Source: Nitrospinales bacterium (GTDB taxonomy: Bacteria; Nitrospinota; Nitrospinia; Nitrospinales; VA-1). Taken from it: a DNA stretch of 64,000 nucleotides. Position 1 is the stretch's first letter; each line of letters starts with the position of its first letter. The DNA lies in NCBI GenBank assembly GCA_965263085.1, contig OZ253582.1, positions 349,848 through 413,847 of the forward strand. Direction: 5' to 3'. Shown here in pieces: positions 10,243 to 36,564 of this stretch. The notes beneath the pieces are model-generated. The model ran no database searches. It worked only from the letters and a program-made list of their open reading frames with translations, and was not told the origin of the DNA. A program made the translations under genes and the position numbers.

Positions 10243-10249
10243 TTTCTGA

Positions 10250-11595: not shown

Positions 11596-11615
11596 TTTGG
11601 AATTAAATTTCTTAC

Positions 11616-11649: not shown

Positions 11650-11666
11650 TATAGGAATGATTTGAA

Positions 11667-12614: not shown

Positions 12615-12633
12615 CCCTAAGGAGATATTTAAA

Positions 12634-13881: not shown

Positions 13882-13884
13882 ACT

Positions 13885-14367: not shown

Positions 14368-14624
14368 GCAAAGTGTGCCTTCACAGGCGTGATACCTTTT
14401 CGTAGCTGTGATATTCCTCCTTAAATTTTATACCCTCGTTATATTCCATCTAAGTACCCCGCAGGGGTGCAAGTAACAATCCCTCATGTTGTAAACAAAC
14501 GTTCTCTCGACTTCAGAAGTCCTCACTCTGCTTCTACGGCTAGTGGAGTTGAATCCCAGAAAACAAAGTGTTACGATACCCGATCAGCTTTTAAGATTGT
14601 CATTTCTTGCATCATTGGTCGGCT

Positions 14625-18992: not shown

Positions 18993-19178
18993 ATAAATGG
19001 TAGGTATTAAACCACCCCGAAACAAAAACATACCATATTTAATCGCAAAAAAAACGACACTGAATGAACCCCTATGACTGCTCATATGGAATCTCTTATT
19101 GATACTGCACTGAAGGAAGACGTGCAAAGTGGTGACATCACCACCATGAATATTATCCCAAGGGACAATTCTGCGAGG
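18993..19178 (+). pseudogene. displaced nadC promoter/5' fragment (left copy of the island-flanking direct repeat; coding part 19074-19178)
   Basis: MTAHMESLIDTALKEDVQSGDITTMNIIPRDNSAR aligns with the nadC N-terminus at 36441 (20 of 36 residues identical by my count). It contains the 22-mer CAAAGTGGTGACATCACCACCA (19125-19146), identical to 36510-36531. The outer repeat ends are approximate. Confidence 0.75.
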
Positions 19179-19186
19179 GGGGGGGG
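19177..19186 (+). repeat. G10 homopolymer at the nadC-fragment/island junction
   Basis: Counted directly: ctgcga-GGGGGGGGGG-taag. It lies 34 nt upstream of ATG 19221 and is followed by (TACAA)x3 at 19206-19220. Confidence 0.9.
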
Positions 19187-19220
19187 TAAGGCCCATGCCC
19201 TACCATACAATACAATACAA

Positions 19221-22200
19221 ATGAAACCCTGCACGCCACCAGCAAAGAAGCCGCGCCTTTTCCGGGTTGCCTACCTGTCCCTGATCTGGCTCGCCGCAAC
19301 CATCTGCGCCCTGTTGTTCACCGCCTACCCGGCTAACGCCAGCCTGATGCTCAATACATCGGGCGACCAGAATTACACGCTTGACATGGCGATCCCCAAT
19401 CTGCAACTGCCGGAAGCGACCGGCGGCACGGGGACGCTGGACTACACTCTGACCGGGCCAGACGGCGGCGCCCTGCCGGAGGGTCTGATCTTTACCCCCG
19501 GCACACGCACGCTGTCCGGCACGCCGAGCCAGCCCGGTGCCACCACCCTGACCTACACGGTCACCGATACCAGCGATGCCGGAACGGTTACGACCTCCAC
19601 CTCCACGACCTTCACGGTCAGGGTCCACATGCTCAATACACCGGACAGCCAGGCTTACGTGTTGAACAGGGCGATCACTCTGCAACTGCCGGAAGCGGCC
19701 GGCGGCAAGGGGCCGCTGGTGTACACTCTGACCAGGCGAGGCGGCGGCGCCCTGCCGGGAGGTCTGGAGTTTGACGCCGACACACGCATACTGTCCGGCA
19801 CGCCGAGCATGAACGGTTACTTCCCCCTGACCTACACGGTCACCGATGCCAACGGTGTCAGCACGAGTGTGAACTTCCTGCTCATAGTCAGGGGCAGCGT
19901 GAAGCTGACCGCACCGCTCAACCAGAATTACACGCAGGGCATGGCGATCCCCGATCTGCAACTGCCAGCAGCGACCGACGGCACGGGGACGCGGGTGTAC
20001 ACTCTGACCGGCGTGCCGGCGGGTCTGACCTTTGACGCTGGCAAACGCAAGCTGTCCGGCACGCCGAGCGCGCTCGGTTCCACTCTCCTGACCTACACGG
20101 TCACCGATGCCAACGGTGACGAGACTAGTGTGACCTTCACGGTCACGGTCAACGCCGACCTGGCGCTCAATGCACGAGGCAACCGGAGTTACGCGCAGGG
20201 CAGGACGATCAGAGATCTGCAACTACCGGAAGCGATCGGCGGCACGGGGACGCTGGTGTACACTCTGACCGGGCCAGACGGCCTAGACGACCTGCCGGCG
20301 GGTCTGACCTTTGACGCTGGCACACGCACGCTGTCCGGCACGCCGAGCACGGTCGGTGTCACCACCCTGACCTACACGGTCACCGATACCAACAATGCCA
20401 GCACGACTGCGACCTTCACGGTCAACGTCATATTTAGTAGGGGAGGAAACCTGGGGATAGTGGAGACGGATGGCCTGGATTACGCGCAGGGCAGGCCGTT
20501 CACTCGGCAACTGTCGGAAGCGACCGGCGGCATAGGGACGCTGACCTACACTCTGACCGGGCTAGACGGCGGCCCCCTGCCGGCGGGTCTGACCTTTGAC
20601 CCCGACACACGCACGCTGTCCGGCACGCCGAGCATGACCGGTAACTTCGTCATGACCTACACGGTCACCGATACCAACGATACCATCCAGGTGTTCGGAA
20701 GGGGCATCCGTATCTCCGTCTTCTCCAACCTGAGGCTCAATACATCGGGCAACCGGGGCTATACCCAGAACACTTTGATCACCGATCTGCAACTGCCGGA
20801 AGCGACCGGCGGCTTTGGGACGCTGAGGTACACTCTGACCGGGCCAGACGGCCTGCCGATGGGTCTGACCTTTGACGCTGGCACACGCACACTGTCCGGC
20901 ACGCCGAGCACGGTCGGTGTCACCACCCTGACCTACACGGTCACCGATATCAACGATGCCTTCACGGCTATGTTCTCGAGGCGCTTCACGGTCACGGTCA
21001 ACGCCGGCCTGGCGCTCAATGCATCGGGCGACCAGAATTACACGCTTGATACGGCAATCACCGATCTGCAACTGCCGGTAGCGACCGGCGGCACGGGGAC
21101 GTTGACCTACACTCTGACCGCGCCAGGCGGCGGCCTGCCGGCGGGTCTGACCTTTGACCCCGGCACACGCACGCTGTCCGGCACGCCGGACACGGCTGGT
21201 ACCACCATCTTGACCTACATGGCCACCGATACCAGCGGTGTCGGAACGGTTACGTTCTCCACGACCTTCACGGTCAAGGTCAACGCCAGCTTGGCGCTCA
21301 GTGCATCGGGCGACCAGAATTACACGCAGGGCACAGCGATCAGCGTGCAACTGCCAGCAGCGACCGGCGGCACGATGCCGCTGACCTACACTCTGACCGG
21401 CCTGCCGGCGGGTCTGACCTTTACCCCCGGCACACGCACGCTGTCCGGCACGCCGAGCACGGCTGCTACCACCACCTTGACCTACAGGGTCACAGATGAC
21501 AACGGTGCCAGCACGAGTGTGGACTTCACGGTCACGGTCAGCGACGGCCTGACGTTCGACTCTGAACCGGCCAACCAGAATTACACGCAGGGCACGGCGA
21601 TCCCCGATCTGCAACTGCCAGTAGCGACCGGCGGCACGGAGCCACTGAGGTACACTCTGACCAGTGTGCCGGGTCTGACCTTTACCCCCGGCACACGCAT
21701 ACTGTCCGGCACGCCGGACACGGCTGCTACCACCACCCTGACCTACAGGGTCACCGATACCAACGGTGCCAGCACGAGTGTGGACTTCATGGTCACGGTC
21801 AACGCCGGCTTGGCGCTGACCGCGCCGGTCGACCAGAATTACACGCAGGGCACGGCGATCACCGATCTGCCTCTGCCGGAAGCGAGCGGAGGCACGGAGC
21901 CGCTGACCTACACTCTGACAGGGCCAGGCGACAGCGCCCTGCAGGGAGGTCTGGACTTTACCCCCGGCACACGCACGCTGTCCGGCACGCCGAGCACGCC
22001 TGCTACCACCACCCTGACCTACGAGGTCACCGATACCAACGGTGCCAGCGACAGTGTGGACTTCACCGTCATAGTCAACGCCAAACTGGCACTCGATACA
22101 CCGGACGACCAGAATTACACGCAGGACAAGGCGATCACCAATCTGGAACTGCCAGCAGCGACCGGCGGCACCGGGACGCTGACCTACACTCTGACCGGCC

Positions 22201-25200
22201 TGCCGGGAGGTCTGACCTTTAGCGGACGCACGCTGTCCGGCACGCCTGACACGGATGGTGACTTCACCCTGACCTACGAGGTCAGCGATGCCAACGGTGC
22301 CAGCACGAGTGTGGACTTCACCGTCATAGTCAACGCCAAACTGGCACTCGATACACCGGACGACCAGAATTACACGCAGGGCAGGGCGATCACCGATCTG
22401 ACTCTGCCGGCAGCGAGCGGCGGCACCGGGACGCTGACCTACACTCTGACCGGGCTAGGCGGCCTGCCGGGAGGTCTGAACTTTACCGCCGGCACACGCA
22501 CGCTATCCGGCACGCCAAGCACGCCTGGTACTACCACCTTGACCTACGAGGTCACCGATACCAACAGTGCCAGCACGACTGCGACCTTCATGGTCAAGGT
22601 CAACGCCGAACTGGGGCTCAATGCATCGGGCAACCAGAATTACACGCAGGACAGGAGGATCCCCGGTGGTCTGTTTCTGCCGGAAGCAACCGGCGGCACG
22701 GCGCCACTGACGTACACTCTGACCGCGCCAGGCGGCCTGCCGGCGGGTCTGGAATTTAACGTCAACGCACGCCTACTGTTCGGCCCGCCGAGCACGCCTG
22801 CTACCACCACCCTGACCTACACGGTCACCGATGCCAACGGTGCCAGCAAGAGTGTGGACTTCATGGTCACGGTCAACCCCGGCTTGGCGCCGCTGACCGC
22901 GCCGGCCGACCAGAATTACACGCAGGGCAGGGCGATCACCGATCTGACTCTGCCGGCAGCGACCGGCGGCACGGAGCCATTGACGTACACTCTGACCGGC
23001 CTGCCGCCGGGTCTGACCTTTGACACACGCACGCTGTCCGGCACGCCGGACACGCCTGGTACCTTTGACCTGACCTACGAGGTCACCGATGCCAACGGTG
23101 CCAGCACGGATGTGACCTTCATGGTCACGGTCAACGAGGGCTTGGCTCTGACCGCATCGAGCAACCAGAATTACACGCTTAACACGGCGATCCCCGCTCT
23201 GACTCTGCCGGCAGCGGACGGCGGCACCGGGACGCTGACCTACACTCTGACCGGGCCAGGCGGCCTGCCGGGAGGTCTGGACTTTAGCGGACGCACGCTG
23301 TCCGGCACACCGGACACGGCTGGTGACTTCACCCTGACCTACGAGGTCATGGATGCCAACGGTGCCAGCACGACTGCGACCTTCACGGTTAGTGTCAGCG
23401 ACGGCTTGGCACTCAGTGCACGAGGCGACCAGAATTACACGCAGGACAAGGCGATCACCGATCTGGAACTGCCGATAGCGAGCGGCGGCACGGCGCCACT
23501 GACCTACACTCTGACCAGTGTGCCGGGTCTGGACTTTAACGCCAACACACGCATACTGTCCGGCACACCGAGCACGGCTGATACCTTCGACCTGACCTAC
23601 GAGGTCACCGATGCCAACGGTGCCAGCACGACTGCGACCTTCACGGTCATAGTCAGCGACGGCTTGGCACTCAGTGCACGAGGCGACCAGAATTACACGC
23701 TTGATACGGCGATCACCGATCTGGAACTGCCGGAAGCGAGCGGCGGCACCGGGACGCTGACCTACACTCTGACCGGGCCAGGCGACAGCGCCCTGCCGGG
23801 AGGTCTGACCTTTAGCGGACGCATACTGTCCGGCACACCGGACACGGCTGGTGACTTCACCCTGACCTACACGGTCACCGATACCAACAATGCCACCACG
23901 ACTGCGACCTTCACGGTCATAGTCAGCGATGGCTTGGCACTCAGTGCACGAGGCGACCAGAATTACACGCAGGACAAGGCGATCACCGATCTGGAACTGC
24001 CGATAGCGAGCGGCGGCACGGCGCCACTGACCTACACTCTGACCAGTGTGCCGGGTCTGGACTTTAACGCCAACACACGCACGCTGTCCGGCACACCGAG
24101 CACGGCTGATACCTTCGACCTGACCTACGAGGTCACCGATGCCAACGGTGCCAGCACGACTGCGACCTTCACGGTCATAGTCAGCGACGGCTTGGCACTC
24201 AGTGCACGAGGCGACCAGAATTACACGCTTAACACGGCGATCACCGGTCTGGAACTGCCGGAAGCGGACGGCGGCACCGGGACGCTGACCTACACTCTGA
24301 CCGGGCCAGGCGGCCTGCCGGGAGGTCTGGACTTTAGCGGACGCACGCTGTCCGGCACACCGGACACGGCTGGTGACTTCACCCTGACCTACACGGTCAC
24401 CGATACCAACGATGCCACCACGACTGCGACCTTCACGGTCATAGTCAGCGACGGCTTGGCACTCAGTGCACGAGGCGACCAGAATTACACGCAGGACAAG
24501 GCGATCACCGATCTGGAACTGCCGATAGCGAGCGGCGGCACGGCGCCACTGACCTACACTCTGACCAGTGTGCCGGGTCTGGACTTTAACGCCAACACAC
24601 GCACGCTGTCCGGCACACCGAGCACGGCTGATACCTTCGACCTGACCTACGAGGTCACCGATGCCAACGGTGCCAGCACGACTGCGACCTTCACGGTCAT
24701 AGTCAGCGACGGCTTGGCGCTGACCGCATCGGGCAACCAGAATTACACGCTTGATACGGAGATCACCGCTCTGGAACTGCCGGTAGCGACCGGCGGCACC
24801 GGGACGCGGACCTACACTCTGACCGGGCCAAGCGGCCTGCCGGGAGGTCTGGACTTTGACGTCGACACACGCATACTGTCCGGCACGCCGACCGAGGTCG
24901 GTACCACCACCCTGACCTACGAGGTCATGGATGAAAACGGTGCCAGCACGAGTGTGGACTTCACGGTCACGGTCAACGCCGGCTTGACGCTGACCGCATC
25001 GGGCAACCAGAATTACACGCAGGGCACGGCGATCACCGATCTGCCACTGCCAGCAGCGACCGGCGGCACGATGCCGCTGACCTACACTCTGACCAGTGTG
25101 CCGGGTCTGGACTTTAACGCCGGCACACGCACGCTGTCCGGCACGCCGAGCACCGCCACTAGTACCACCACCCTGACCTACGAGGTCACCGATGCCAACA

Positions 25201-26327
25201 ATGCCAGCACGAGTGTGGACTTCACGGTCACGGTCAACGCCGGCTTGACGCTGACCGCATCGGGCAACCAGAATTACACGCTTGATACGGCGATCACCGG
25301 TCTGGAACTGCCGGTAGCGACCGGCGGCACGATGCCGCTGACCTACACTCTGACCGGGCCAAGCGGCGGCAACCTACCGGCGGGTCTGACCTTTAGCGGA
25401 CGCACGCTGTCCGGCACGCCGACCGAGGTCGGTACCACCACCCTGACCTACGAGGTCATGGATGAAAACGGTGCCAGCACGAGTGTGGACTTCACGGTCA
25501 CGGTCAACGCCGGCTTGGCACTCAGTGCACGAGGCGACCAGAATTACACAGAGGACACGGCGATCCCCGATCTGGAACTGCCGGAAGCGAGCGGCGGCAC
25601 GGAGCCACTGGTGTACACTCTGACAGGGCCAGGCGACAGCGCCCTGCCGGGAGGTCTGACCTTTAGCGGACGCACGCTGTCCGGCACACCGACCGAGGTC
25701 GGTACCACCACCCTGACCTACGAGGTCATGGATGAAAACGGTGCCAGCACGAGTGTGGACTTCACGGTCACGGTCAACGCCGGCTTGGCACTCAGTGCAC
25801 GAGGCGACCAGAATTACACAGAGGACACGGCGATCCCCGATCTGGAACTGCCGGAAGCGAGCGGCGGCACGGAGCCACTGGTGTACACTCTGACAGGGCC
25901 AGGCGACAGCGCCCTGCCGGGAGGTCTGACCTTTAGCGGACGCACGCTGTCCGGCACACCGGACACGGCTGCTACCACCATCTTGACCTACACGGTCATG
26001 GATGACAACGGTGCCAGCACGAGTGTGGACTTCACGGTCACGGTCAACGAGGGCTTGGCGCTGACCGCATCGGGCGACCAGAATTACACGCAGGGCACGG
26101 CGATCACCAATCTGGAACTGCCAGCAGCGACCGGCGGCACGGCGCTGCTGGTGTACACTCTGACCAGTGTGCCGGGTCTGGACTTTGACCCCGGCACACG
26201 CACGCTGTCCGGCACGCCGAGCACGCCTGCTACCACCACCCTGACCTACATGGTCAGCGATGCCAACGGTGCCAGCACGACTGCGACCTTCACCGTCATA
26301 GTCAGCGACGGCTTAGCGGCGCGCTGA
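19221..26327 (+). CDS. giant autotransporter adhesin, N-terminal segment (signal peptide + 26 He_PIG/cadherin-like Ig modules); frame lost at 26.3 kb
   Basis: The track ORF is 19074-26327. I place the start at ATG 19221 because MKPCTPPAKKPRLFRVAYLSLIWLAATICALLFTAYPANA/S is a canonical Sec signal peptide (basic n-region, hydrophobic core, AxA site). The modules carry the signature LP.A.GG.G.L.Y.L..LP.GL.F...R.LSGTP.....LTY.V.D.NG.S...F.V.V. The ORF ends at a TGA created by 5 extra nt in a linker (gcttAGCGGCgcgcTGAccg versus canonical gcttggcgctgaccg) and has no barrel of its own. Confidence 0.8.
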   Translation: MKPCTPPAKKPRLFRVAYLSLIWLAATICALLFTAYPANASLMLNTSGDQNYTLDMAIPNLQLPEATGGTGTLDYTLTGPDGGALPEGLIFTPGTRTLSGTPSQPGATTLTYTVTDTSDAGTVTTSTSTTFTVRVHMLNTPDSQAYVLNRAITLQLPEAAGGKGPLVYTLTRRGGGALPGGLEFDADTRILSGTPSMNGYFPLTYTVTDANGVSTSVNFLLIVRGSVKLTAPLNQNYTQGMAIPDLQLPAATDGTGTRVYTLTGVPAGLTFDAGKRKLSGTPSALGSTLLTYTVTDANGDETSVTFTVTVNADLALNARGNRSYAQGRTIRDLQLPEAIGGTGTLVYTLTGPDGLDDLPAGLTFDAGTRTLSGTPSTVGVTTLTYTVTDTNNASTTATFTVNVIFSRGGNLGIVETDGLDYAQGRPFTRQLSEATGGIGTLTYTLTGLDGGPLPAGLTFDPDTRTLSGTPSMTGNFVMTYTVTDTNDTIQVFGRGIRISVFSNLRLNTSGNRGYTQNTLITDLQLPEATGGFGTLRYTLTGPDGLPMGLTFDAGTRTLSGTPSTVGVTTLTYTVTDINDAFTAMFSRRFTVTVNAGLALNASGDQNYTLDTAITDLQLPVATGGTGTLTYTLTAPGGGLPAGLTFDPGTRTLSGTPDTAGTTILTYMATDTSGVGTVTFSTTFTVKVNASLALSASGDQNYTQGTAISVQLPAATGGTMPLTYTLTGLPAGLTFTPGTRTLSGTPSTAATTTLTYRVTDDNGASTSVDFTVTVSDGLTFDSEPANQNYTQGTAIPDLQLPVATGGTEPLRYTLTSVPGLTFTPGTRILSGTPDTAATTTLTYRVTDTNGASTSVDFMVTVNAGLALTAPVDQNYTQGTAITDLPLPEASGGTEPLTYTLTGPGDSALQGGLDFTPGTRTLSGTPSTPATTTLTYEVTDTNGASDSVDFTVIVNAKLALDTPDDQNYTQDKAITNLELPAATGGTGTLTYTLTGLPGGLTFSGRTLSGTPDTDGDFTLTYEVSDANGASTSVDFTVIVNAKLALDTPDDQNYTQGRAITDLTLPAASGGTGTLTYTLTGLGGLPGGLNFTAGTRTLSGTPSTPGTTTLTYEVTDTNSASTTATFMVKVNAELGLNASGNQNYTQDRRIPGGLFLPEATGGTAPLTYTLTAPGGLPAGLEFNVNARLLFGPPSTPATTTLTYTVTDANGASKSVDFMVTVNPGLAPLTAPADQNYTQGRAITDLTLPAATGGTEPLTYTLTGLPPGLTFDTRTLSGTPDTPGTFDLTYEVTDANGASTDVTFMVTVNEGLALTASSNQNYTLNTAIPALTLPAADGGTGTLTYTLTGPGGLPGGLDFSGRTLSGTPDTAGDFTLTYEVMDANGASTTATFTVSVSDGLALSARGDQNYTQDKAITDLELPIASGGTAPLTYTLTSVPGLDFNANTRILSGTPSTADTFDLTYEVTDANGASTTATFTVIVSDGLALSARGDQNYTLDTAITDLELPEASGGTGTLTYTLTGPGDSALPGGLTFSGRILSGTPDTAGDFTLTYTVTDTNNATTTATFTVIVSDGLALSARGDQNYTQDKAITDLELPIASGGTAPLTYTLTSVPGLDFNANTRTLSGTPSTADTFDLTYEVTDANGASTTATFTVIVSDGLALSARGDQNYTLNTAITGLELPEADGGTGTLTYTLTGPGGLPGGLDFSGRTLSGTPDTAGDFTLTYTVTDTNDATTTATFTVIVSDGLALSARGDQNYTQDKAITDLELPIASGGTAPLTYTLTSVPGLDFNANTRTLSGTPSTADTFDLTYEVTDANGASTTATFTVIVSDGLALTASGNQNYTLDTEITALELPVATGGTGTRTYTLTGPSGLPGGLDFDVDTRILSGTPTEVGTTTLTYEVMDENGASTSVDFTVTVNAGLTLTASGNQNYTQGTAITDLPLPAATGGTMPLTYTLTSVPGLDFNAGTRTLSGTPSTATSTTTLTYEVTDANNASTSVDFTVTVNAGLTLTASGNQNYTLDTAITGLELPVATGGTMPLTYTLTGPSGGNLPAGLTFSGRTLSGTPTEVGTTTLTYEVMDENGASTSVDFTVTVNAGLALSARGDQNYTEDTAIPDLELPEASGGTEPLVYTLTGPGDSALPGGLTFSGRTLSGTPTEVGTTTLTYEVMDENGASTSVDFTVTVNAGLALSARGDQNYTEDTAIPDLELPEASGGTEPLVYTLTGPGDSALPGGLTFSGRTLSGTPDTAATTILTYTVMDDNGASTSVDFTVTVNEGLALTASGDQNYTQGTAITNLELPAATGGTALLVYTLTSVPGLDFDPGTRTLSGTPSTPATTTLTYMVSDANGASTTATFTVIVSDGLAAR

Positions 26328-27477
26328 CCGCATCGGGCAACCAGAATTACACGCTTGATACGGCGATCACCGATCTGGAACTGCCGGAAGCGAGCGGCGG
26401 CACGGAGCCACTGACCTACACTCTGACCAGTGTGCCGGGTCTGACCTTTACCCCCGGCACACGCACGCTGTCCGGCACGCCGCCAGAGTCATAGTCCGAC
26501 GGCTTGGCGCACGCAACCAGAATTACAGATCACCACGGACCTACACTCTGCCAGCACCCTCACGGTCACGGTACACGGTCATGGATGACAACGGTGCCAG
26601 CACGAGTGTGGACTTCACGGTCACGGTCAACGACGGCTTGGCACTCAGTGCACGAGGCGACCAGAATTACACGCAGGACAAGGCGATCACCGATCTGCAA
26701 CTGCCGATAGCGAGCGGCGACCGACCAGCACGGGCTTTACCCCCGGCACACGCCACTGACCTACACTCTGACCAGTGTGCCGGGTCTGGACTTTGACCCC
26801 GGCACACGCACGCTGTCCGGCACGCCGACCGAGGTCGGTACCACCACCCTGACCTACGAGGTCATGGATGAAAACGGTGCCAGCACGAGTGTGGACTTCA
26901 CGGTCACGGTCAACGCCGGCTTGGCACTCAGTGCACGAGGCGACCAGAATTACACAGAGGACACGGCGATCCCCGATCTGGAACTGCCGGAAGCGAGCGG
27001 CGGCACGGAGCCACTGACCTACACTCTGACCAGTGTGCCGGGTCTGGACTTTGACGCCGACACACGCATACTGTCCGGCACACCGAGCACGCCTGCTACC
27101 ACCACCCTGACCTACATGGTCAGCGATGCCAACGGTGCCAGCACGACTGCGACCTTCACCGTCATAGTCAGCGACGGCTTGGCGCTGACCGCATCGGGCA
27201 ACCAGAATTACACAGATCACCGCTCTGGACAAGGCGATCACCGACTCTGCCAACTGCCGGAAGCGACGCACGCTGTCCGGCACGCCGAGTACCACCACCC
27301 TGACCTACAGGTCATGGATGAAAACGGTGCCACACGAGTGACTTCACGGTCACGGTCAACGCCGGCGCACTCAGTGCACGAGGCGACCAGAATTACACAG
27401 AGGACACGGCGATCCCCGATCTGGAACTGCCGGAAGCGAGCGGCGGCACGGAGCCACTGACCTACACTCTGACCAGT
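26311..27477 (+). other. scrambled-repeat zone interrupting the adhesin frame (assembly collapse or genuine disruption)
   Basis: Four patches (26314-26323, 26471-26580, 26716-26760, 27215-27375) are shredded or misplaced module pieces. They are separated by intact canonical modules, and ORF 26777-27460 reads through two of those. Confidence 0.8.
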
Positions 27478-30400
27478 GTGCCGGGTCTGGACTTTGACGC
27501 CGACACACGCATACTGTCCGGCACACCGAGCACGCCTGCTACCACCACCCTGACCTACATGGTCAGCGATGCCAACGGTGCCAGCACGACTGCGACCTTC
27601 ACCGTCATAGTCAGCGACGGCTTGGCGCTGACCGCATCGGGCAACCAGAATTACACGCAGGACAAGGCGATCCCCGATCTGCAACTGCCGGAAGCGAGCG
27701 GCGGCACGGAGCCACTGACCTACACTCTGACCAGTGTGCCGGGTCTGGACTTTGACGCCGACACACGCATACTGTCCGGCACACCGAGCACGCCTGCTAC
27801 CACCACCCTGACCTACATGGTCAGCGATGCCAACGGTGCCAGCACGACTGCGACCTTCACCGTCATAGTCAGCGACGGCTTGGCGCTGACCGCATCGGGC
27901 AACCAGAATTACACAGAGGACAAGGCGATCCCCGATCTGCAACTGCCGATAGCGACCGGAGGCACGGGGACGCTGACCTACACTCTGACCGGGCCAAGCG
28001 GCGGCAACCTACCGGCGGGTCTGACCTTTAGCGGACGCACGCTGTCCGGCACGCCGACCGAGGTCGGTACCACCACCCTGACCTACGAGGTCATGGATGA
28101 AAACGGTGCCAGCACGAGTGTGGACTTCACGGTCACGGTCAACGCCGGCTTGGCACTCAGTGCACGAGGCGACCAGAATTACACAGAGGACACGGCGATC
28201 CCCGATCTGGAACTGCCGGAAGCGAGCGGCGGCACGGAGCCACTGACCTACACTCTGACCAGTGTGCCGGGTCTGGACTTTGACGCCGACACACGCATAC
28301 TGTCCGGCACACCGAGCACGCCTGCTACCACCACCCTGACCTACATGGTCAGCGATGCCAACGGTGCCAGCACGACTGCGACCTTCACCGTCATAGTCAG
28401 CGACGGCTTGGCGCTGACCGCATCGGGCAACCAGAATTACACGCAGGACAAGGCGATCCCCGATCTGCAACTGCCGATAGCGACCGGAGGCACGGGGACG
28501 CTGACCTACACTCTGACCAGTGTGCCGGGTCTGGACTTTGACCCCGGCACACGCACGCTGTCCGGCACGCCGAGCACGCCTGCTACCACCACCCTGACCT
28601 ACATGGTCAGCGATGCCAACGGTGCCAGCACGACTGCGACCTTCACCGTCATAGTCAGCGACGGCTTGGCGCTGACCGCATCGGGCAACCAGAATTACAC
28701 GCAGGACAAGGCGATCCCCGATCTGGAACTGCCGGTAGCGACCGGCGGCACGGAGCCACTGACCTACACTCTGACCAGTGTGCCGGGTCTGGACTTTAAC
28801 CCCGGCACACGCATACTGTCCGGCACACCGAGCACGGCTGATACCACTACCCTGACCTACACGGTCACCGATACCAACGGTGCCAGCGAGAATGCGACCT
28901 TCATGGTCACGGTCAACGCCAGCTTAGCGCTGACCGCGCCGGTCGACCAGAATTACACGCTTGATACGGAGATCACCGGTCTGACTCTGCCGGAAGCGGA
29001 CGGCGGCACGGCGCCGCTGACCTACACTCTGACCAGCGTGCCGGGTCTGAACTTTAACGCCAACACACGCACGCTGTCCGGCACGCCGAGCACGGCTGAT
29101 ACCACTACCCTGACCTACACGGTCACCGATACCAACGGTGCCAGCGAGAATGCGACCTTCATGGTCACGGTCAACGCCAGCTTAGCGCTGACCGCGCCGG
29201 TCGACCAGAATTACACGCTTGATACGGAGATCACCGGTCTGACTCTGCCGGAAGCGGACGGCGGCACGGCGCCGCTGACCTACACTCTGACCAGCGTGCC
29301 GGGTCTGAACTTTAACGCCAACACACGCACGCTGTCCGGCACGCCGAGCACGGCTGATACCACTACCCTGACCTACACGGTCACCGATACCAACGGGGCC
29401 AGCGAGAATGCGACCTTCACGGTCACGGTCAACGAGGGCTTGGCGCTGACCGCATCGGGCAACCAGAATTACACAGAGGGCAGGGTGATCACCGCTCTGC
29501 AACTGCCGGTAGCGACCGGCGGCACGGGAACGCTGGTGTACACTCTGACAGGGCCAAGCGGCGGCAACCTGCCGGCGGGTCTGACCTTTACCCCTGGCAC
29601 ACGCACGCTGTCCGGCACGCCGAGCACGGCTGATACCACTACCCTGACCTACACGGTCACCGATACCAACGGTGCCAGCGAGAATGCGACCTTCATGGTC
29701 ACGGTCAACGCCAGCTTAGCGCTGACCGCGCCGGTCGACCAGAATTACACGCTTGATACGGAGATCACCGGTCTGACTCTGCCGGAAGCGGACGGCGGCA
29801 CCGGGACGCTGACCTACACTCTGACCAGCGTGCCGGGTCTGACCTTTACCCCCGGCACACGCACGCTGTCCGGCACGCCGAGCACGGCTGATACCACTAC
29901 CCTGACCTACACGGTCACCGATACCAACGGTGCCAGCGAGAATGCGACCTTCATGGTCACGGTCAACGCCAGCTTAGCGCTGACCGCGCCGGTCGACCAG
30001 AATTACACGCTTGATACGGAGATCACCGGTCTGACTCTGCCGGAAGCGGACGGCGGCACGGCGCCGCTGACCTACACTCTGACCAGCGTGCCGGGTCTGA
30101 ACTTTAACGCCAACACACGCACGCTGTCCGGCACGCCGAGCACGGCTGATACCACTACCCTGACCTACACGGTCACCGATACCAACGGTGCCAGCGAGAA
30201 TGCGACCTTCATGGTCACGGTCAACGCCAGCTTAGCGCTGACCGCGCCGGTCGACCAGAATTACACGCTTGATACGGAGATCACCGGTCTGACTCTGCCG
30301 GAAGCGGACGGCGGCACGGCGCCGCTGACCTACACTCTGACCAGCGTGCCGGGTCTGAACTTTAACGCCAACACACGCACGCTGTCCGGCACGCCGAGCA

Positions 30401-33400
30401 CGGCTGATACCACTACCCTGACCTACACGGTCACCGATACCAACGGGGCCAGCGAGAATGCGACCTTCACGGTCACGGTCAACGAGGGCTTGGCGCTGAC
30501 CGCATCGGGCAACCAGAATTACACAGAGGGCAGGGTGATCACCGCTCTGCAACTGCCGGTAGCGACCGGCGGCACGGGAACGCTGGTGTACACTCTGACA
30601 GGGCCAAGCGGCGGCAACCTGCCGGCGGGTCTGACCTTTACCCCTGGCACACGCACGCTGTCCGGCACGCCGAGCACGGCTGATACCACTACCCTGACCT
30701 ACACGGTCACCGATACCAACGGTGCCAGCGAGAATGCGACCTTCATGGTCACGGTCAACGCCAGCTTAGCGCTGACCGCGCCGGTCGACCAGAATTACAC
30801 AGAGGGCAGGGTGATCACCGCTCTGGAACTGCCGGTAGCGACCGGCGGCACCGGGACGCTGACCTACACTCTGACCAGCGTGCCGGGTCTGAACTTTAAC
30901 GCCAACACACGCACGCTGTCCGGCACGCCGAGCACGGCTGATACCACTACCCTGACCTACACGGTCACCGATACCAACGGTGCCAGCGAGAATGCGACCT
31001 TCATGGTCACGGTCAACGCCAGCTTAGCGCTGACCGCGCCGGTCGACCAGAATTACACAGAGGGCAGGGTGATCACCGCTCTGGAACTGCCGGTAGCGAC
31101 CGGCGGCACCGGGACGCTGACCTACACTCTGACCAGCGTGCCGGGTCTGACCTTTACCCCCGGCACACGCACGCTGTCCGGCACGCCGAGCACGGCTGAT
31201 ACCACTACCCTGACCTACACGGTCACCGATACCAACGGTGCCAGCGAGAATGCGACCTTCATGGTCACGGTCAACGCCAGCTTAGCGCTGACCGCGCCGG
31301 TCGACCAGAATTACACGCTTGATACGGAGATCACCGGTCTGACTCTGCCGGAAGCGGACGGCGGCACGGCGCCGCTGACCTACACTCTGACCAGCGTGCC
31401 GGGTCTGAACTTTAACGCCAACACACGCACGCTGTCCGGCACGCCGAGCACGGCTGATACCACTACCCTGACCTACACGGTCACCGATACCAACGGGGCC
31501 AGCGAGAATGCGACCTTCACGGTCACGGTCAACGAGGGCTTGGCGCTGACCGCATCGGGCAACCAGAATTACACAGAGGGCAGGGTGATCACCGCTCTGC
31601 AACTGCCGGTAGCGACCGGCGGCACCGGGACGCTGACCTACACTCTGACCAGCGTGCCGGGTCTGACCTTTACCCCCGGCACACGCACGCTGTCCGGCAC
31701 GCCGAGCACGGCTGATACCACTACCCTGACCTACACGGTCACCGATACCAACGGTGCCAGCGAGAATGCGACCTTCATGGTCACGGTCAACGCCAGCTTA
31801 GCGCTGACCGCGCCGGTCGACCAGAATTACACGCTTGATACGGAGATCACCGGTCTGACTCTGCCGGAAGCGGACGGCGGCACGGCGCCGCTGACCTACA
31901 CTCTGACCAGCGTGCCGGGTCTGAACTTTAACGCCAACACACGCACGCTGTCCGGCACGCCGAGCACGGCTGATACCACTACCCTGACCTACACGGTCAC
32001 CGATACCAACGGGGCCAGCGAGAATGCGACCTTCACGGTCACGGTCAACGAGGGCTTGGCGCTGACCGCATCGGGCAACCAGAATTACACAGAGGGCAGG
32101 GTGATCACCGCTCTGGAACTGCCGGTAGCGACCGGCGGCACCGGGACGCTGACCTACACTCTGACCAGCGTGCCGGGTCTGACCTTTAACGCCAACACAC
32201 GCACGCTGTCCGGCACGCCGAGCACGGCTGATACCACTACCCTGACCTACACGGTCACCGATACCAACGGTGCCAGCGAGAATGCGACCTTCATGGTCAC
32301 GGTCAACGAGGGCTTGGCGCTGACCGCGCCGGTCGACCAGAATTACACGCTTGATACGGAGATCACCGGTCTGACTCTGCCGGAAGCGGACGGCGGCACG
32401 GCGCCGCTGACCTACACTCTGACCAGCGTGCCGGGTCTGAACTTTAACGCCAACACACGCACGCTGTCCGGCACGCCGAGCACGGCTGATACCACTACCC
32501 TGACCTACACGGTCACCGATACCAACGGGGCCAGCGAGAATGCGACCTTCACGGTCACGGTCAACGAGGGCTTGGCGCTGACCGCATCGGGCAACCAGAA
32601 TTACACAGAGGGCAGGGTGATCACCGCTCTGGAACTGCCGGTAGCGACCGGCGGCACCGGGACGCTGACCTACACTCTGACCAGCGTGCCGGGTCTGACC
32701 TTTAACGCCAACACACGCACGCTGTCCGGCACGCCGAGCACGGCTGATACCACTACCCTGACCTACGAGGTCATGGATGACAACGGGGCCAGCACGAGTG
32801 TGGACTTCACGGTCACGGTCAACGAGGGCTTGGCGCTGACCGCATCGGGCAACCAGAATTACACGCTTGATACGGAGATCGACGATCTGCAACTGCCGGA
32901 AGCGAGCGGCGGCACGGGAACGCTGGTGTACACTCTGACAGGGCCAAGCGGCGGCAACCTGCCGGCGGGTCTGACCTTTGACACACGCACACTGTCCGGC
33001 ACGCCGGACACGGCTGGTACCACCAACCTGACCTACAGGGTCACCGATGCCAACGATGCCACCACGACTGCGACCTTCACCGTCATAGTCAGCGACGGCT
33101 TGGCGCTGACCGCATCCGGCAACCAGAATTACACGCTTGGCACGGCGATCACCAATCTGGAACTGCCAGCAGCGACCGGCGGCACGGCGCCACTGACGTA
33201 CACTCTGACCAGTGTGCCGGGTCTGGACTTTGACCCCGGCACACGCACGCTGTCCGGCACGCCGAGCACGCCTGCTACCACCACCCTGACCTACATGGTC
33301 AGCGATGCCAACGGTGCCAGCACGACTGCGACCTTCACCGTCATAGTCAGCGACGGCTTGGCGCTGACCGCATCGGGCAACCAGAATTACACGCTTAATA

Positions 33401-36339
33401 CGGCGATCACCAATCTGGAACTGCCGGAAGCGAGCGGCGGCACGGGAACGCTGGTGTACACTCTGACAGGGCCAAGCGGCGGCAACCTGCCGGCGGGTCT
33501 GACCTTTGACACACGCACACTGTCCGGCACGCCGGACACGGCTGGTACCACCAACCTGACCTACAGGGTCACCGATGCCAACGATGCCACCACGACTGCG
33601 ACCTTCACCGTCATAGTCAGCGACGGCTTGGCGCTGACCGCATCCGGCAACCAGAATTACACGCTTGATACGGCGATCAGCAATCTGCAACTGCCAGCAG
33701 CGACCGGTGGCACGGGGACGTTGACCTACACTCTGACCAATGTGCCGGGTCTGGACTTTAACGTCGACACACGCATACTGTCCGGCACGCCGGACACGGC
33801 TGGTACCACCACCCTGACCTACGAGGTCACCGATACCAACGGTGCCAGCACGACTGCGACCTTCACCGTCATAGTCAGCGACGGCTTGGCGCTGACCGCG
33901 CCGGCCAACCAGACTTACACAGAGGACAGGGCGATCAACAATCTGCAACTGCTGGCAGCGACCGGTGGCACGGGGACGTTGACCTACACTCTGACCAATG
34001 TGCCGGGTCTGGACTTTAACGTCGACACACGCATACTGTCCGGCACGCCGGACACGGCTGGTACCACCACCCTGACCTACGAGGTCATGGATGAAAACGG
34101 TGCCAGCACGAATGCGACCTTCACCGTCATAGTCAACGACAGCTTGGCGCTGACCGCGCCGGTCGACCAGAATTACACGCTTGATACGGCGATCACCGAT
34201 CTGCAACTGCCGATAGCGACTGGCGGCACCGGGACGCTGACCTACACTCTGACCAATGTGCCGGGTCTGACCTTTACCCCTGGCACACGCACGCTGTCCG
34301 GCACGCCGGACACGGCTGGTACCACCACCCTGACCTACAGGGTCACCGATACCAACGGTGCCAGCACGAGTGTGACCTTCACGGTTAGTGTCAGCGAGGG
34401 CTTGGCGCTGACCGCATCGGGCAACCAGAATTACACAGAGGGCAGGGCGATCACCGATCTGCAACTGCTGGCAGCGACCGGTGGCACCGGGACGTTGACG
34501 TACACTCTGACCAGTGTGCCGGGTCTGGACTTTAACGCCAACACACGCATACTGTCCGGCACGCCAAGCACGGCTGGTACCACCACCCTGACCTACAGGG
34601 TCACCGATGACAACGGTGCCAGCACGAGTGTGGACTTCATGGTCACGGTCAACGCCGGCTTGACGCTCGATACACCGGCCAACCAGAATTACACGCTTGA
34701 CACGGAGATCCCCGATCTGCCACTGCCGGAAGCGACCGGCGGCACGGGGACGTTGACGTACACTCTGACCGGGCCAAGCGGCCTGCAGGGAGGTCTGACC
34801 GTGTCAAACGACGACACCCTGCCGGGAGGTCTGACCTTTACCGCCGGCACACACACGCTGTCCGGCACGCCGGACACGGCTGGTACCACCACCTTGACCT
34901 ACACGGTCACCGGTGCCAACGGTGCCAGCACGAATGTGACCTTCACGGTCACGGTATCCGACAATACGGACGAGGGGTTTGCCGACCTCAATACCTTGAT
35001 CCTGCCGGAAATGGCGCGGGCCATAGCCGACCAGAAGGTGAGCGCGATAACACAACGTATTGCTAAGACCATGAGCGGTGGCAGTACCCGGTCCGTCACT
35101 ATTGCCGGGCAGCCCACATTGGCCGAGGCGGCATCTGCCCACGGCCAGGCCATCGCCGATGGCACGCTGAGTCTTAAGGATCTGCTGAACAACTCTGACT
35201 TTGTCCTGCCGCTGAATGATGCCAGCGGTACGGACAGCGGAGCCTTATGGGGCGGGGGCAGCTACCGCAGCTTCGAAGGTTCCGGCGGGGAAGATGTGGA
35301 CTTTGACGGAGACCTGTTCAGCGCCTATCTGGGACTGGACACTCAACCGCGTGACGACCTGCTGATCGGCCTGACGCTATCCTGGAGCCAGAGCAATCTT
35401 GGCTACCAGAGGAGTGAACTCGAACGCAAGGGGGATTATAAGCTGGACCTCACCAGTATTAATCCTTATGTAGGCTGGGAAGTGCTGGCCGGAAAACTGG
35501 ATCTGTGGGCCACTGCGGGCTACGGCTGGGGTGACCTTAAGATCACTGATGACGGGTCGGACCAGGCATCGAGCTATGTTGAAGCGTGGGACGTGGCTGT
35601 GGGCGGTAATATCCAGTTGTCGCAGGCGACGAGCCCGGTCCTGTTCCGGCTCAAGAGTTCAGCCTTGCTGACCGAGATGGATGTGGAGGGCAGCGATGAT
35701 ATTGCGGGGCTGGGAGTGGATGCCAGCCTGTTGCGCATGGTCCTGGAAGGAACGGATAAACATCTGCTGGCCAACGGGGCTTATGTGGAGCCGAGCCTGG
35801 AGGTCGGAGTGCGGTATAACGGCGGCGACGGCGAGACTGGTTTCGAGGCCGAGTTGGGTGCCGGTTTCCGCTACATCAATCCGATCGCCGGTCTGACCCT
35901 GGAAGGCAGGGCACGCACCCTGGTGGGACGGGACAATTATAATGCATGGGGCCTTTCCGGCCTGATTCTTCTGGAGCAGGGCAGCAACGGGCGGGGGCTG
36001 TCGTTCAGCCTGAGTCCCGGTTACGGTAATACCAACAGCGGTACGGAAAAAATATGGAAGGATGGCCTGCGTGACGAGATCAGCGGTGACCAGGGTTACA
36101 GCCTGCGGCTGGACACCCGGATTGGTTACGGGCTGACCGCTCCCGGTGTGCGGGGACTGCTGACTCCTTACAGCGAAATGACCTTCGGCGGCTCTGACAG
36201 GAGTTACCGCCTGGGGATAAGATGGGAACTTGATTCGTTGTTTGACCTGAACCTGACCGGTGAGCGTATAGAGAGCAACAGCAGCACCGCTGACCGCGCC
36301 ATTGACCGCGCCATGCTGAAAGGCAATATCCGGTTTTAA
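27478..36339 (+). CDS. giant autotransporter adhesin, C-terminal segment (29 modules + linker + beta-barrel translocator)
   Basis: 2953-aa track ORF. Its GTG start falls inside a module (..SVPGLDFDAD..) and there is no signal peptide. After module 29 come a helical linker (ADLNTLILPEMARAIADQKVSAITQRIAK) and a barrel-like domain (LWGGGSYRSFEG, DLFSAYLGLD, alternating-hydrophobic strands) ending ...LKGNIRF. Confidence 0.85.
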   Translation: MPGLDFDADTRILSGTPSTPATTTLTYMVSDANGASTTATFTVIVSDGLALTASGNQNYTQDKAIPDLQLPEASGGTEPLTYTLTSVPGLDFDADTRILSGTPSTPATTTLTYMVSDANGASTTATFTVIVSDGLALTASGNQNYTEDKAIPDLQLPIATGGTGTLTYTLTGPSGGNLPAGLTFSGRTLSGTPTEVGTTTLTYEVMDENGASTSVDFTVTVNAGLALSARGDQNYTEDTAIPDLELPEASGGTEPLTYTLTSVPGLDFDADTRILSGTPSTPATTTLTYMVSDANGASTTATFTVIVSDGLALTASGNQNYTQDKAIPDLQLPIATGGTGTLTYTLTSVPGLDFDPGTRTLSGTPSTPATTTLTYMVSDANGASTTATFTVIVSDGLALTASGNQNYTQDKAIPDLELPVATGGTEPLTYTLTSVPGLDFNPGTRILSGTPSTADTTTLTYTVTDTNGASENATFMVTVNASLALTAPVDQNYTLDTEITGLTLPEADGGTAPLTYTLTSVPGLNFNANTRTLSGTPSTADTTTLTYTVTDTNGASENATFMVTVNASLALTAPVDQNYTLDTEITGLTLPEADGGTAPLTYTLTSVPGLNFNANTRTLSGTPSTADTTTLTYTVTDTNGASENATFTVTVNEGLALTASGNQNYTEGRVITALQLPVATGGTGTLVYTLTGPSGGNLPAGLTFTPGTRTLSGTPSTADTTTLTYTVTDTNGASENATFMVTVNASLALTAPVDQNYTLDTEITGLTLPEADGGTGTLTYTLTSVPGLTFTPGTRTLSGTPSTADTTTLTYTVTDTNGASENATFMVTVNASLALTAPVDQNYTLDTEITGLTLPEADGGTAPLTYTLTSVPGLNFNANTRTLSGTPSTADTTTLTYTVTDTNGASENATFMVTVNASLALTAPVDQNYTLDTEITGLTLPEADGGTAPLTYTLTSVPGLNFNANTRTLSGTPSTADTTTLTYTVTDTNGASENATFTVTVNEGLALTASGNQNYTEGRVITALQLPVATGGTGTLVYTLTGPSGGNLPAGLTFTPGTRTLSGTPSTADTTTLTYTVTDTNGASENATFMVTVNASLALTAPVDQNYTEGRVITALELPVATGGTGTLTYTLTSVPGLNFNANTRTLSGTPSTADTTTLTYTVTDTNGASENATFMVTVNASLALTAPVDQNYTEGRVITALELPVATGGTGTLTYTLTSVPGLTFTPGTRTLSGTPSTADTTTLTYTVTDTNGASENATFMVTVNASLALTAPVDQNYTLDTEITGLTLPEADGGTAPLTYTLTSVPGLNFNANTRTLSGTPSTADTTTLTYTVTDTNGASENATFTVTVNEGLALTASGNQNYTEGRVITALQLPVATGGTGTLTYTLTSVPGLTFTPGTRTLSGTPSTADTTTLTYTVTDTNGASENATFMVTVNASLALTAPVDQNYTLDTEITGLTLPEADGGTAPLTYTLTSVPGLNFNANTRTLSGTPSTADTTTLTYTVTDTNGASENATFTVTVNEGLALTASGNQNYTEGRVITALELPVATGGTGTLTYTLTSVPGLTFNANTRTLSGTPSTADTTTLTYTVTDTNGASENATFMVTVNEGLALTAPVDQNYTLDTEITGLTLPEADGGTAPLTYTLTSVPGLNFNANTRTLSGTPSTADTTTLTYTVTDTNGASENATFTVTVNEGLALTASGNQNYTEGRVITALELPVATGGTGTLTYTLTSVPGLTFNANTRTLSGTPSTADTTTLTYEVMDDNGASTSVDFTVTVNEGLALTASGNQNYTLDTEIDDLQLPEASGGTGTLVYTLTGPSGGNLPAGLTFDTRTLSGTPDTAGTTNLTYRVTDANDATTTATFTVIVSDGLALTASGNQNYTLGTAITNLELPAATGGTAPLTYTLTSVPGLDFDPGTRTLSGTPSTPATTTLTYMVSDANGASTTATFTVIVSDGLALTASGNQNYTLNTAITNLELPEASGGTGTLVYTLTGPSGGNLPAGLTFDTRTLSGTPDTAGTTNLTYRVTDANDATTTATFTVIVSDGLALTASGNQNYTLDTAISNLQLPAATGGTGTLTYTLTNVPGLDFNVDTRILSGTPDTAGTTTLTYEVTDTNGASTTATFTVIVSDGLALTAPANQTYTEDRAINNLQLLAATGGTGTLTYTLTNVPGLDFNVDTRILSGTPDTAGTTTLTYEVMDENGASTNATFTVIVNDSLALTAPVDQNYTLDTAITDLQLPIATGGTGTLTYTLTNVPGLTFTPGTRTLSGTPDTAGTTTLTYRVTDTNGASTSVTFTVSVSEGLALTASGNQNYTEGRAITDLQLLAATGGTGTLTYTLTSVPGLDFNANTRILSGTPSTAGTTTLTYRVTDDNGASTSVDFMVTVNAGLTLDTPANQNYTLDTEIPDLPLPEATGGTGTLTYTLTGPSGLQGGLTVSNDDTLPGGLTFTAGTHTLSGTPDTAGTTTLTYTVTGANGASTNVTFTVTVSDNTDEGFADLNTLILPEMARAIADQKVSAITQRIAKTMSGGSTRSVTIAGQPTLAEAASAHGQAIADGTLSLKDLLNNSDFVLPLNDASGTDSGALWGGGSYRSFEGSGGEDVDFDGDLFSAYLGLDTQPRDDLLIGLTLSWSQSNLGYQRSELERKGDYKLDLTSINPYVGWEVLAGKLDLWATAGYGWGDLKITDDGSDQASSYVEAWDVAVGGNIQLSQATSPVLFRLKSSALLTEMDVEGSDDIAGLGVDASLLRMVLEGTDKHLLANGAYVEPSLEVGVRYNGGDGETGFEAELGAGFRYINPIAGLTLEGRARTLVGRDNYNAWGLSGLILLEQGSNGRGLSFSLSPGYGNTNSGTEKIWKDGLRDEISGDQGYSLRLDTRIGYGLTAPGVRGLLTPYSEMTFGGSDRSYRLGIRWELDSLFDLNLTGERIESNSSTADRAIDRAMLKGNIRF
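28657..32820 (+). repeat. block of 16 near-identical modules organised as 1050-nt (4-module) and ~516-nt (2-module) higher-order repeats
   Basis: Identical 106-aa antisense ORFs at 29182, 30232 and 31282 show three identical 321-nt stretches at exact 1050-nt spacing. Module boundaries were mapped by hand (258+258+276+258 nt). Confidence 0.9.
34957..36339 (+). other. autotransporter linker plus C-terminal beta-barrel domain of the adhesin
   Basis: This non-repetitive ~460-aa tail starts SDNTDEGF. It is Gly/aromatic-rich with amphipathic strands and a terminal Phe, as is typical for outer-membrane beta-barrels. Confidence 0.75.
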
Positions 36340-36393
36340 CAGGAGAGGGGCCAGGATCGCATTAGCTATTCTGTTTCTTCTTTGCTGTGAGGC

Positions 36394-36564
36394 TGATAAA
36401 ATGGTTAAAGTTTTAACACCATTTTGACCGCGAAAACAAGATGCCGAATAAACCTCTCATGGCTGTAGATATTGAGTCCCTCATCATCACCACCCTGGAA
36501 GAAGACATCCAAAGTGGTGACATCACCACCAGGAGCATTATACCTGAGGGACAACTCCGCGAGG
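36394..36564 (+). repeat. right copy of the island-flanking direct repeat (nadC promoter/5' end)
   Basis: About 75-80% identical by eye to 18993-19178. The perfect 22-mer core lies at 36510-36531. The outer repeat ends are approximate. Confidence 0.7.
36398..36425. promoter_or_regulatory. 28-nt AT-rich imperfect palindrome just upstream of nadC (operator or weak terminator candidate)
   Basis: AAAATGGT-taaagttttaac-ACCATTTT, with an inner TTAAA/TTTAA pairing. It lies 15 nt before ATG 36441 and about 60 nt after the adhesin stop. Confidence 0.3.

Follow-up and report, generated by a model that had tools for sequence, protein, structure and literature searches.

A scrambled repeat zone in a giant autotransporter adhesin gene of a Nitrospinales bacterium, probably a consensus or assembly error

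Results

The window analysed here, a 64,000-nt stretch of contig OZ253582.1 from a Nitrospinales bacterium (assembly GCA_965263085.1, positions 349,848 to 413,847), carries between positions 19221 and 36339 one autotransporter-type adhesin, in which a signal peptide is followed by approximately 58 He_PIG Ig-like modules and, at the C-terminus, by a PF03797 barrel (Table 1). The adhesin has a G+C content of 63% versus approximately 44% in the genome. In the window as given, signal, passenger and barrel do not lie on one polypeptide, as the coding sequence is split at 26327/27478 into two fully open reading frames, ORF1 (7.1 kb) and ORF2 (8.9 kb; 2,953 codons). Two sampled stretches of the array matched PF05345 above the gathering score (E 8e-28 and 2e-32), and an HMM built from the adhesin array gave 60 module matches.

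The ATG of the mechanically called ORF1 (19074) sits in a remnant of a nadC 5' end, which in the sister strain described below is out of frame with the adhesin owing to 1-, 2- and 5-nt indels. This remnant probably lies outside the adhesin proper, and the most likely start is the ATG at 19221, after which a signal-peptide-like sequence follows. By heuristic assessment, this N-terminus has the Sec signal of a type Va autotransporter: a K/R-rich n-region is followed by about 20 residues of hydrophobic core, where Kyte-Doolittle values reach 2.4, and by the motif A-N-A|S. The poly-G tract upstream of the start measures 10, 9, 6+7 and 18 in four assemblies of the adhesin locus or the paralogous locus. 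At the other end, the last 460 aa score above the PF03797 gathering cut-off of 26 bits, and the protein closes with the aromatic residue of a beta-signal (...MLKGNIRF). PF03797 was not listed when a longer 545-aa piece was scanned; it was matched by 10 of 11 aligned sequences, namely the adhesin barrel domain and 10 homologs. Metagenome-assembled genomes (MAGs) of sponge symbionts from several phyla carry many copies of the barrel family, and the host bacterium is itself a probable sponge symbiont.

A homolog search with the N-terminus gave only short fragments (at most 580 aa) and no full-length orthologs, and a PDB sequence search with the barrel profile gave the repeat part only (SraP-like) and no solved autotransporter barrel. 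The adhesin start sequence had 0 matches in JGI metagenomes, and exact look-ups of both nadC starts, the NifU-like gene and the Lcl_C gene gave no matches.

Table 1. Features of the adhesin locus and of its scrambled zone (positions in the window)
Feature	Position	Strand	Description
nadC 5'-end remnant	19074..19185	+	diverged; ~80% identical to the nadC start at 36459 onward
Poly-G tract (G10)	19177..19186	+	followed by ATACA repeats; ~35 nt 5' of the adhesin ATG
ORF1	19221..26327	+	adhesin N-terminal part; signal-peptide-like start (MKPCTPPAKKPRLF..AYPANA|S), then He_PIG modules; stop is the patch-1 TGA
Tandem array	19360..34800	+	~58 He_PIG (PF05345) Ig-like modules of 255-282 nt each; from TRF, Pfam and module HMM
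Patch 1	26314..26323	+	net +5 nt in an inter-module linker: GGCTTAGCGGCGCGCTGACC versus canonical GGCTTGGCGCTGACC
Patch 2	26483..26573	+	about one and a half shredded modules; 14-15 nt pieces in correct order, ~200 nt missing
Patch 3	26714..26753	+	~33-nt misplaced, shredded fragment of module register ~100-140, set before register 67
Intact block	26829..27213	+	identical to 28058-28442 (385 nt), by tiling
Patch 4	27214..27366	+	shredded 270-nt-type module; 8 deletion runs (1-74 nt), 3 insertions; register 17-37 doubled, as two alleles
Junction sequences			in the patch zone: GGCTTAGCGGCGCGCTGACC, ACAGATCACCGCTCTGGACAAGGCG, GCGGCGACCGACCAGCACGGGCTTTACC, CACGCCGCCAGAGTCATAGTCCGACGG
ORF2	27478..36339	+	adhesin C-terminal part; GTG start mid-module, without signal peptide, ~28 modules and barrel
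Linker and barrel	34957..36339	+	linker and autotransporter beta-barrel domain, ending in ...GNIRF; PF03797 34.4 bits, E 2.6e-8
nadC	36459..37295	+	quinolinate phosphoribosyltransferase; downstream flank of the adhesin

The disruption between the two reading frames consists of four patches, along which the frame follows the path 3>2>1>2>1. The first-pass annotation had described an otherwise strictly periodic array broken by an insertion that creates a stop, by two shredded modules and by one misplaced fragment, with intact modules in between and practically no point substitutions in the retained pieces; each of these elements was recovered, displaced by no more than a few bases from the positions it gave. 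Module lengths between CAGAATTACA anchors are multiples of 3 (255-282 nt) across the array except in the patch zone, where the run between 26079 and 27387 measures 263, 176, 144, 283, (258) and 185 nt. Lengths not divisible by 3 occur in five of six consecutive modules of the zone and in none of approximately 46 others, which is not a chance pattern. The module HMM, run in the three forward frames, traced 3>2>1>1>2>2>(no hit)>1, and the TGA that patch 1 brings into frame at 26325-26327 ends ORF1.

Altogether, approximately 25 deletion runs of 1-74 nt and several insertion runs fall into four clusters within 1.17 kb, or 7% of the 17-kb gene, patch 2 alone having 6+11 deletion runs against the best intact reference. 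No frame-breaking lesion was found elsewhere in the other ~14 kb of the array or in the 1.4-kb barrel. Greedy exact-match tiling resolved the patches into pieces of 14-27 nt, each of them exact in other modules, and novel 16-mers are limited to the patches save for one isolated substitution near 26625. The patches are set between exact repeats, one of 385 nt and one of 324 nt (the latter 27367-27690, identical to 28153-28476 by tiling), at the left edge of a block with almost no unique 16-mers.

The junctions have none of the tracts or microhomology that slipped-strand or microhomology-mediated deletion would leave. Neither a homopolymer nor a short repeat lies at the patches, and microhomology at the deletion junctions averages 0.24 nt, compared with 0.68 +/- 0.20 nt for randomly placed deletions of the same sizes; seven of 25 deletion lengths are divisible by 3, so that such lengths are not favoured. 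At two places, one register is doubled in series as two different alleles. Patch 1 interleaves the alleles TTAGCGC and TTGGCGC as TT-AGC-GGCGC-GCTG, the two being present as TTAGCGCTG in the sister strain and TTGGCGCTG in the window, and patch 4 runs through register 22-37 (exact match to 24760) and then through register 17-31 (exact match to 23447). A consensus of mixed copies would be expected to retain the conserved columns of the shredded modules; for three modules, the observed value was reached in 132/254, 28/254 and 1/254 circular shifts, a mixed outcome of a test with low power because most columns are ~88% conserved.

The gene is intact in relatives. In a sister strain (ENA ERZ26695855 contig_2), whose flanks are 99.8% identical to those of the window (23 substitutions and not one indel in 11 kb) and whose hemC and gdh proteins are identical to the window's (gdh at 17722-18969), the adhesin frame at the same locus stays open to the contig end, over at least 4,426 codons, with 37 modules in one frame. 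The arrays of the two strains are not colinear beyond window position 19850 (~83% identity), so the sister strain offers no base-for-base repair. Among 71 homologous loci, 21 have an open frame of 3,780 codons or more; ten arrays with 20 modules or more run without a frame switch, and a paralogous locus (L077) has signal, array and barrel in a single 1,400-aa ORF. These loci bear out the first-pass argument that two halves of which one has the signal and the other the translocator are parts of one gene.

The same assembly batch contains at least three strain variants of the locus with differently organised arrays, and at a 97% threshold just one module type is common to the window and any related assembly. 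Two further assemblies of the same locus contain local anomalies: in one (L075, 9.38x), a module has approximately 9 single-base insertions, and in the other (L001, 7.37x) the array becomes its own reverse complement at approximately 19050.

Discussion

We consider it likely from the sequence that a consensus or assembly error produced the zone 26311-27477 within a single giant autotransporter adhesin gene (approximately 19221-36339). The gene is probably whole in the organism, in which case the finding is an ordinary one and the patch zone not a real feature; the lesions would have arisen in silico. The window appears to derive from a long-read MAG, and we infer a metaMDBG assembly of HiFi reads. 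Related contigs have names in the style ctgN_covx_l/c, which we take to be the metaMDBG header style.

During consensus building, reads of different modules may have been stacked onto one stretch, perhaps joined by reads of co-occurring strains in which the array is organised differently. Agreeing reads would give a perfect consensus, while a conflict in register or length, as between 258-nt and 270-nt modules, would let the path through the alignment graph skip segments and, in places, pass through both alleles in series. The outcome would be shredded modules, a loss of several hundred bases and a shifted frame. The register-doubled, microhomology-free lesions fit such a consensus woven through conflicting reads rather than decay, slippage or simple duplication. 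As in errors of racon/SPOA-style window consensus, which metaMDBG re-implements, in long-read tandem repeats, the lesions are confined to repeats and dominated by indels, the sequence between and around them is perfect, and alleles are interleaved at the same register (patches 1 and 4). In metaMDBG, polishing proceeds in windows of 500 nt, for each of which an SPOA consensus is built from the mapped reads (PMC11392814), and the project's sponge-metagenome notes describe its application to libraries of typically 4-9 kb (PMC13224822). Related contigs of the same batch with metaMDBG-style names also show local defects.

The first-pass annotation had read the zone as a consensus built over collapsed near-identical repeats. 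The artefact part of that claim stands as a deduction from the lesions, but collapse as the sole route does not. The longest exact repeats in the array are 923 nt, a length that HiFi reads normally resolve. Arrays of Thermohalobaculum MAGs, which are equally or more repetitive (2.5-12% unique 16-mers), are in a single frame, and repetitiveness alone therefore does not force such errors. Because comparable MAGs have clean arrays of equal repetitiveness, something further has to be assumed for the window, such as a mixture of strains or low coverage of the locus, and a consensus that mixes reads of co-occurring strains whose arrays differ in organisation would fit at least as well as repeat collapse.

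A second explanation, which we regard as unlikely, is that the sequence is correct and that a single complex, clustered mutation in the array, e.g., through error-prone break repair, put the adhesin out of action very recently. The disruption is, after all, present in the sequence as given, and with 2,953 codons of ORF2 remaining open, a real inactivation could only be a recent one. Two small frameshifts in a paralogous adhesin of a related strain, on a contig with 37x coverage, suggest that genuine inactivation of such genes may happen in the lineage. The zone is also flanked by exact inter-module matches of 115-385 nt that could support RecA-mediated deletion, and the anchor at 26079, like the one at 27388, keeps the frame of the ORF to which it belongs. 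Recombination between any upstream and any downstream module could then restore the gene, as upstream anchors are in the ORF1 frame and downstream anchors in the ORF2 frame and a crossover would therefore excise the zone in frame. The zone would then be a real, recombination-reversible off state of a sponge-symbiont surface adhesin, relieved by unequal recombination that excises the lesion in frame, a reading that we think quite improbable. We know of no mutational process that would produce approximately 25 microhomology-free deletions together with two-allele weaves in four clusters while sparing everything else. The novel 16-mers were not found in the related loci compared, apart from a few edge 16-mers matching variants there; against a real lesion, the junction 16-mers are in none of the related assemblies compared, and the patch-1 junction had 0 matches in JGI metagenomes.

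An old pseudogene undergoing ordinary neutral decay is very improbable, as the first-pass annotation had already held. Such a gene would have multiple frameshifts and stops between signal peptide and barrel, as here, but decay would spread substitutions and indels over the whole 17 kb, whereas the lesions are limited to 7% of the gene, the retained pieces are essentially free of substitutions and both long reading frames are fully open. Two truly separate genes (a secreted Ig-repeat protein and a barrel protein with its own start), or a programmed frameshift as a bridge, are scarcely credible despite the two long ORFs, given that ORF2 would start at a GTG in mid-module without a signal peptide, that relatives carry everything in one ORF, and that at least four frame changes with stops in every frame separate the ORFs, which no single slippery site could bridge.

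As a protein, the adhesin shares with classical type Va autotransporters the N-terminal signal-like sequence, the long passenger, the C-terminal PF03797 barrel and the aromatic end. It differs from them in its passenger, which consists of approximately 58 He_PIG Ig-like modules rather than a beta-helix, and in the split polypeptide of the window as given. Very long Ig-like arrays are also found in SiiE, LapA/LapF, MpIBP-type RTX adhesins and the intimin/invasin inverse autotransporters, but adhesins of the SiiE, LapA, MpIBP and intimin types use type 1 secretion or an N-terminal barrel, in contrast to the C-terminal PF03797 domain here. Giant repeat adhesins have high DNA identity between modules, vary in module number by strain and are notoriously mis-assembled.

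The main value of the scrambled zone is as a quality flag. If it is an assembly or consensus error, genome annotation will show two truncated proteins or a pseudogene in place of the one surface adhesin that the organism probably makes, and pseudogene counts and adhesin repertoires in symbiont MAGs would be biased likewise. The He_PIG-array autotransporter gene is worth recording, as context rather than as a finding: if the zone is an error, the organism would make one protein of approximately 5,700 residues that consists of a Sec signal, approximately 60 He_PIG Ig-like modules and, at the C-terminus, a type Va barrel.

Organization of the adhesin gene

The adhesin, encoded on the + strand, is an autotransporter-type gene whose features are collected in the table below. 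Its last 460 residues, ending in ...NIRF, match the PF03797 autotransporter barrel with 34.4 bits (cut-off 26); the match is present on scanning these 460 residues by themselves and absent from a scan of a 545-aa piece (34702-36336) that takes in one He_PIG module. Among 11 aligned sequences (the adhesin barrel domain and 10 homologs), 10 match PF03797. The true start of the gene is most likely at 19221, since the first ~110 nt of ORF1, as called mechanically, are a diverged copy of the nadC 5' end (~80% identity) that does not share the adhesin's reading frame in the sister strain (ENA ERZ26695855 contig_2). Some 35 nt upstream of the ATG lie a poly-G tract, with lengths of 10, 9, 6+T+7 and 18 across four assemblies, and ATACA repeats in 3 or 2 copies, perhaps forming a promoter or leader subject to phase variation, or else a product of homopolymer miscalling.

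Features of the adhesin locus (window positions unless a related contig is named)
Feature	Position	Description
ORF1 (mechanical)	19074-26327	N-terminal part
Poly-G tract; ATACA repeats	19177-19186; 19205-19220	
Signal-peptide-like start	ATG 19221	K/R-rich n-region, ~20-residue hydrophobic core, A-N-A|S
Tandem array	19360-34800	~58 modules of 255-282 nt, each a He_PIG (PF05345) Ig-like domain
Patch 1	26314-26323	net +5 nt, giving a TGA at 26325-26327
Patch 2	26483-26573	6+11 deletion runs over two modules
Patch 3	26714-26753	misplaced fragment, ~33 nt
Patch 4	27214-27366	8 deletion runs (1-74 nt), 3 insertions
ORF2 (mechanical)	27478-36339	C-terminal part
Higher-order repeats	28750-32700	four-module units of ~1,050 nt, exact repeats up to 923 nt
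Second-locus copies of the gdh-adhesin-nadC unit	L001 6912-7490 and 12569-12948; L077 ~9560-15100	

Anatomy of the scrambled zone

The spacing between CAGAATTACA anchors is a multiple of three throughout the array except at 26079-27387, where the modules measure 263, 176, 144, 283, (258) and 185 nt from anchor to anchor. We scored the lesions in these modules by alignment to the best intact modules; module lengths, alignments and exact-match tiling all agree with the four patches described in the first-pass annotation. The pieces within the patches are 14-27 nt long, and the blocks between them are perfect (26829-27213 is identical to 28058-28442, and 27367-27690 to 28153-28476). As had been noted, the retained pieces are nearly free of substitutions: they match other modules exactly, and novel 16-mers are limited to the patches, apart from those of a single isolated substitution. 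Save for a few at the edges, the novel 16-mers were not found in those related loci that were compared. The reading frame follows the path 3>2>1>1>2>2>none>1 along the zone. Long exact repeats flank the zone, which adjoins the left end of a block almost without unique 16-mers (none between ~28860 and 32600).

Comparison with related loci

The hemC and gdh proteins upstream of the adhesin are identical to those of the sister strain, and the 11 kb of shared flank differ by 23 substitutions and 0 indels. The adhesin at the same position in the sister strain reads through at least 4,426 codons without a stop and reaches the end of the contig, its 37 modules all sharing a single frame. At the paralogous locus on L077, a 37x contig, a 1,400-aa ORF joins signal, 10 modules and barrel. 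On this comparative evidence the adhesin is a single gene across the zone, upholding the earlier view that both ORFs belong together. A barrel-profile scan of GTDB species genomes yielded 71 homologous loci, hosted by MAGs of Nitrospinales (68-76% identical), Thermohalobaculum, Nitrospirales, Azotimanducaceae, Poriferihabitaceae, Spongiihabitans, Binatia and others. In 21 of them no stop interrupts the frame for at least 3,780 codons, as far as the retrieved DNA extends, and ten arrays of 20 or more He_PIG modules show no frame switch.

Origin of the scrambled zone

The patch 1 sequence TT-AGC-GGCGC-GCTG is an interleave of the alleles TTAGCGCTG, which occurs in the sister strain, and TTGGCGCTG, the common form in the window. 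Patch 4 runs through register 22-37 (exact match at 24760) and then register 17-31 (exact match at 23447), and therefore contains the same stretch twice, as two differing alleles. A simple tandem duplication would yield two like copies, yet the alleles differ, and a series of deletions is unable to step backwards in register. Slippage or microhomology-mediated deletion was likewise unsupported, with a mean junction microhomology of 0.24 nt versus 0.68 +/- 0.20 nt for random placement (25 deletions); 7 of the 25 deletion lengths are divisible by three. Together, the interleave in patch 1 and the doubled register in patch 4 point to a putative alignment-graph consensus.

Such an error is plausible given the strain variants and local defects seen in related contigs. 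One ENA assembly batch holds at least three strain variants of the locus, with near-identical flanks and differently organised arrays. On the L075 contig (same locus, 9.38x), one module at 9147-9431 bears about nine scattered single-base insertions between clean neighbours, probably a low-coverage consensus error. On L001 (7.37x), the forward He_PIG array flips abruptly at ~19050 to its own reverse complement, likely a chimeric or fold-back join, and the locus is frameshifted relative to its 37x version. The related assemblies use ctgN_covx_l contig names, which we take to be the metaMDBG header style. In this assembler each read receives a unique assignment, and a SPOA consensus is built separately for every 500-nt window of a contig (PMC11392814). 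It has been applied in Aquatic Symbiosis Genomics sponge genome notes, where HiFi libraries are typically 4-9 kb (PMC13224822); reads of that length would not span a 15-kb array. Considering the interleaved alleles, the microhomology-poor junctions and the intact relatives, we side with the first-pass annotation in regarding the zone as probably a consensus or assembly error within one intact gene.

Counting against a consensus or assembly error are the length of the exact repeats, at most 923 nt, and the Thermohalobaculum arrays, which are clean despite having just 2.5-12% unique 16-mers. Since repetitiveness by itself does not suffice, such an error has to presuppose strain mixture or low local coverage. 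A mixed-copy consensus would favour conserved columns among those retained in the shredded modules; here the picture was mixed, with 132/254, 28/254 and 1/254 circular shifts attaining the observed value in three modules, and power was low, most columns being about 88% conserved. A real, recent, complex lesion is unlikely, though worth weighing; it would be revertible by inter-module recombination, because the anchors on either side are in frame with their own ORF. In its favour, on the 37x contig L077 a pair of small frameshifts (20504-20630) within one divergent module breaks a second large adhesin into a part of 1,520 aa and a following one of at least 1,607 aa, and real inactivation may therefore happen in the lineage; this break could itself reflect either a genuine pseudogene or an error from mixed strains. 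As had been argued before, a pseudogene formed through neutral decay is highly improbable: every disruption falls within 1.17 kb of the 17-kb gene, what is retained has exact counterparts in other modules, and neither long ORF is interrupted. Two separate genes, or programmed frameshifting bridging their expression, are scarcely credible.

Locus context and possible spread of the family

The adhesin is bracketed by nadC 5' sequences, with the ~80% diverged copy directly upstream (19074-19185) and the intact nadC directly downstream (5' end at 36459-36570), an arrangement that would fit insertion or exchange of the adhesin through recombination at nadC. A unit reaching from 205 nt inside the gdh 5' end (18764), across the adhesin, to ~400-500 nt into nadC is repeated at a second genomic locus, beside radical-SAM, Fer4 and ParE genes and with a short 10-module adhesin; it resembles a segmental duplicate of the entire adhesin cassette together with pieces of its flanks. 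A 77-aa gdh fragment is also present on an NCBI/ENA contig bearing the same hemC and gdh proteins. Neighbouring genes at 39076-39618 and 37715-38140 code for a protein with LRR_6/LRR_4 repeats and for one with an Lcl_C domain; sponge symbionts typically have eukaryote-like repeat proteins of this kind.

The adhesin (19000-36400) has 61-64% G+C versus ~40-47% for the genome. The barrel has ~62% G+C in Nitrospinales MAGs versus ~46% in the flanks, and in Alphaproteobacteria it equals the host. The barrel family is multicopy in sponge-symbiont MAGs of several phyla, where one Thermohalobaculum MAG has at least 16 copies and a Nitrospirales MAG at least 15. As a finding, the scrambled zone is ordinary, and the surrounding gene family is of greater interest: its G+C contrast with the flanks and its many copies across phyla suggest that it may have spread horizontally within sponge microbiomes.
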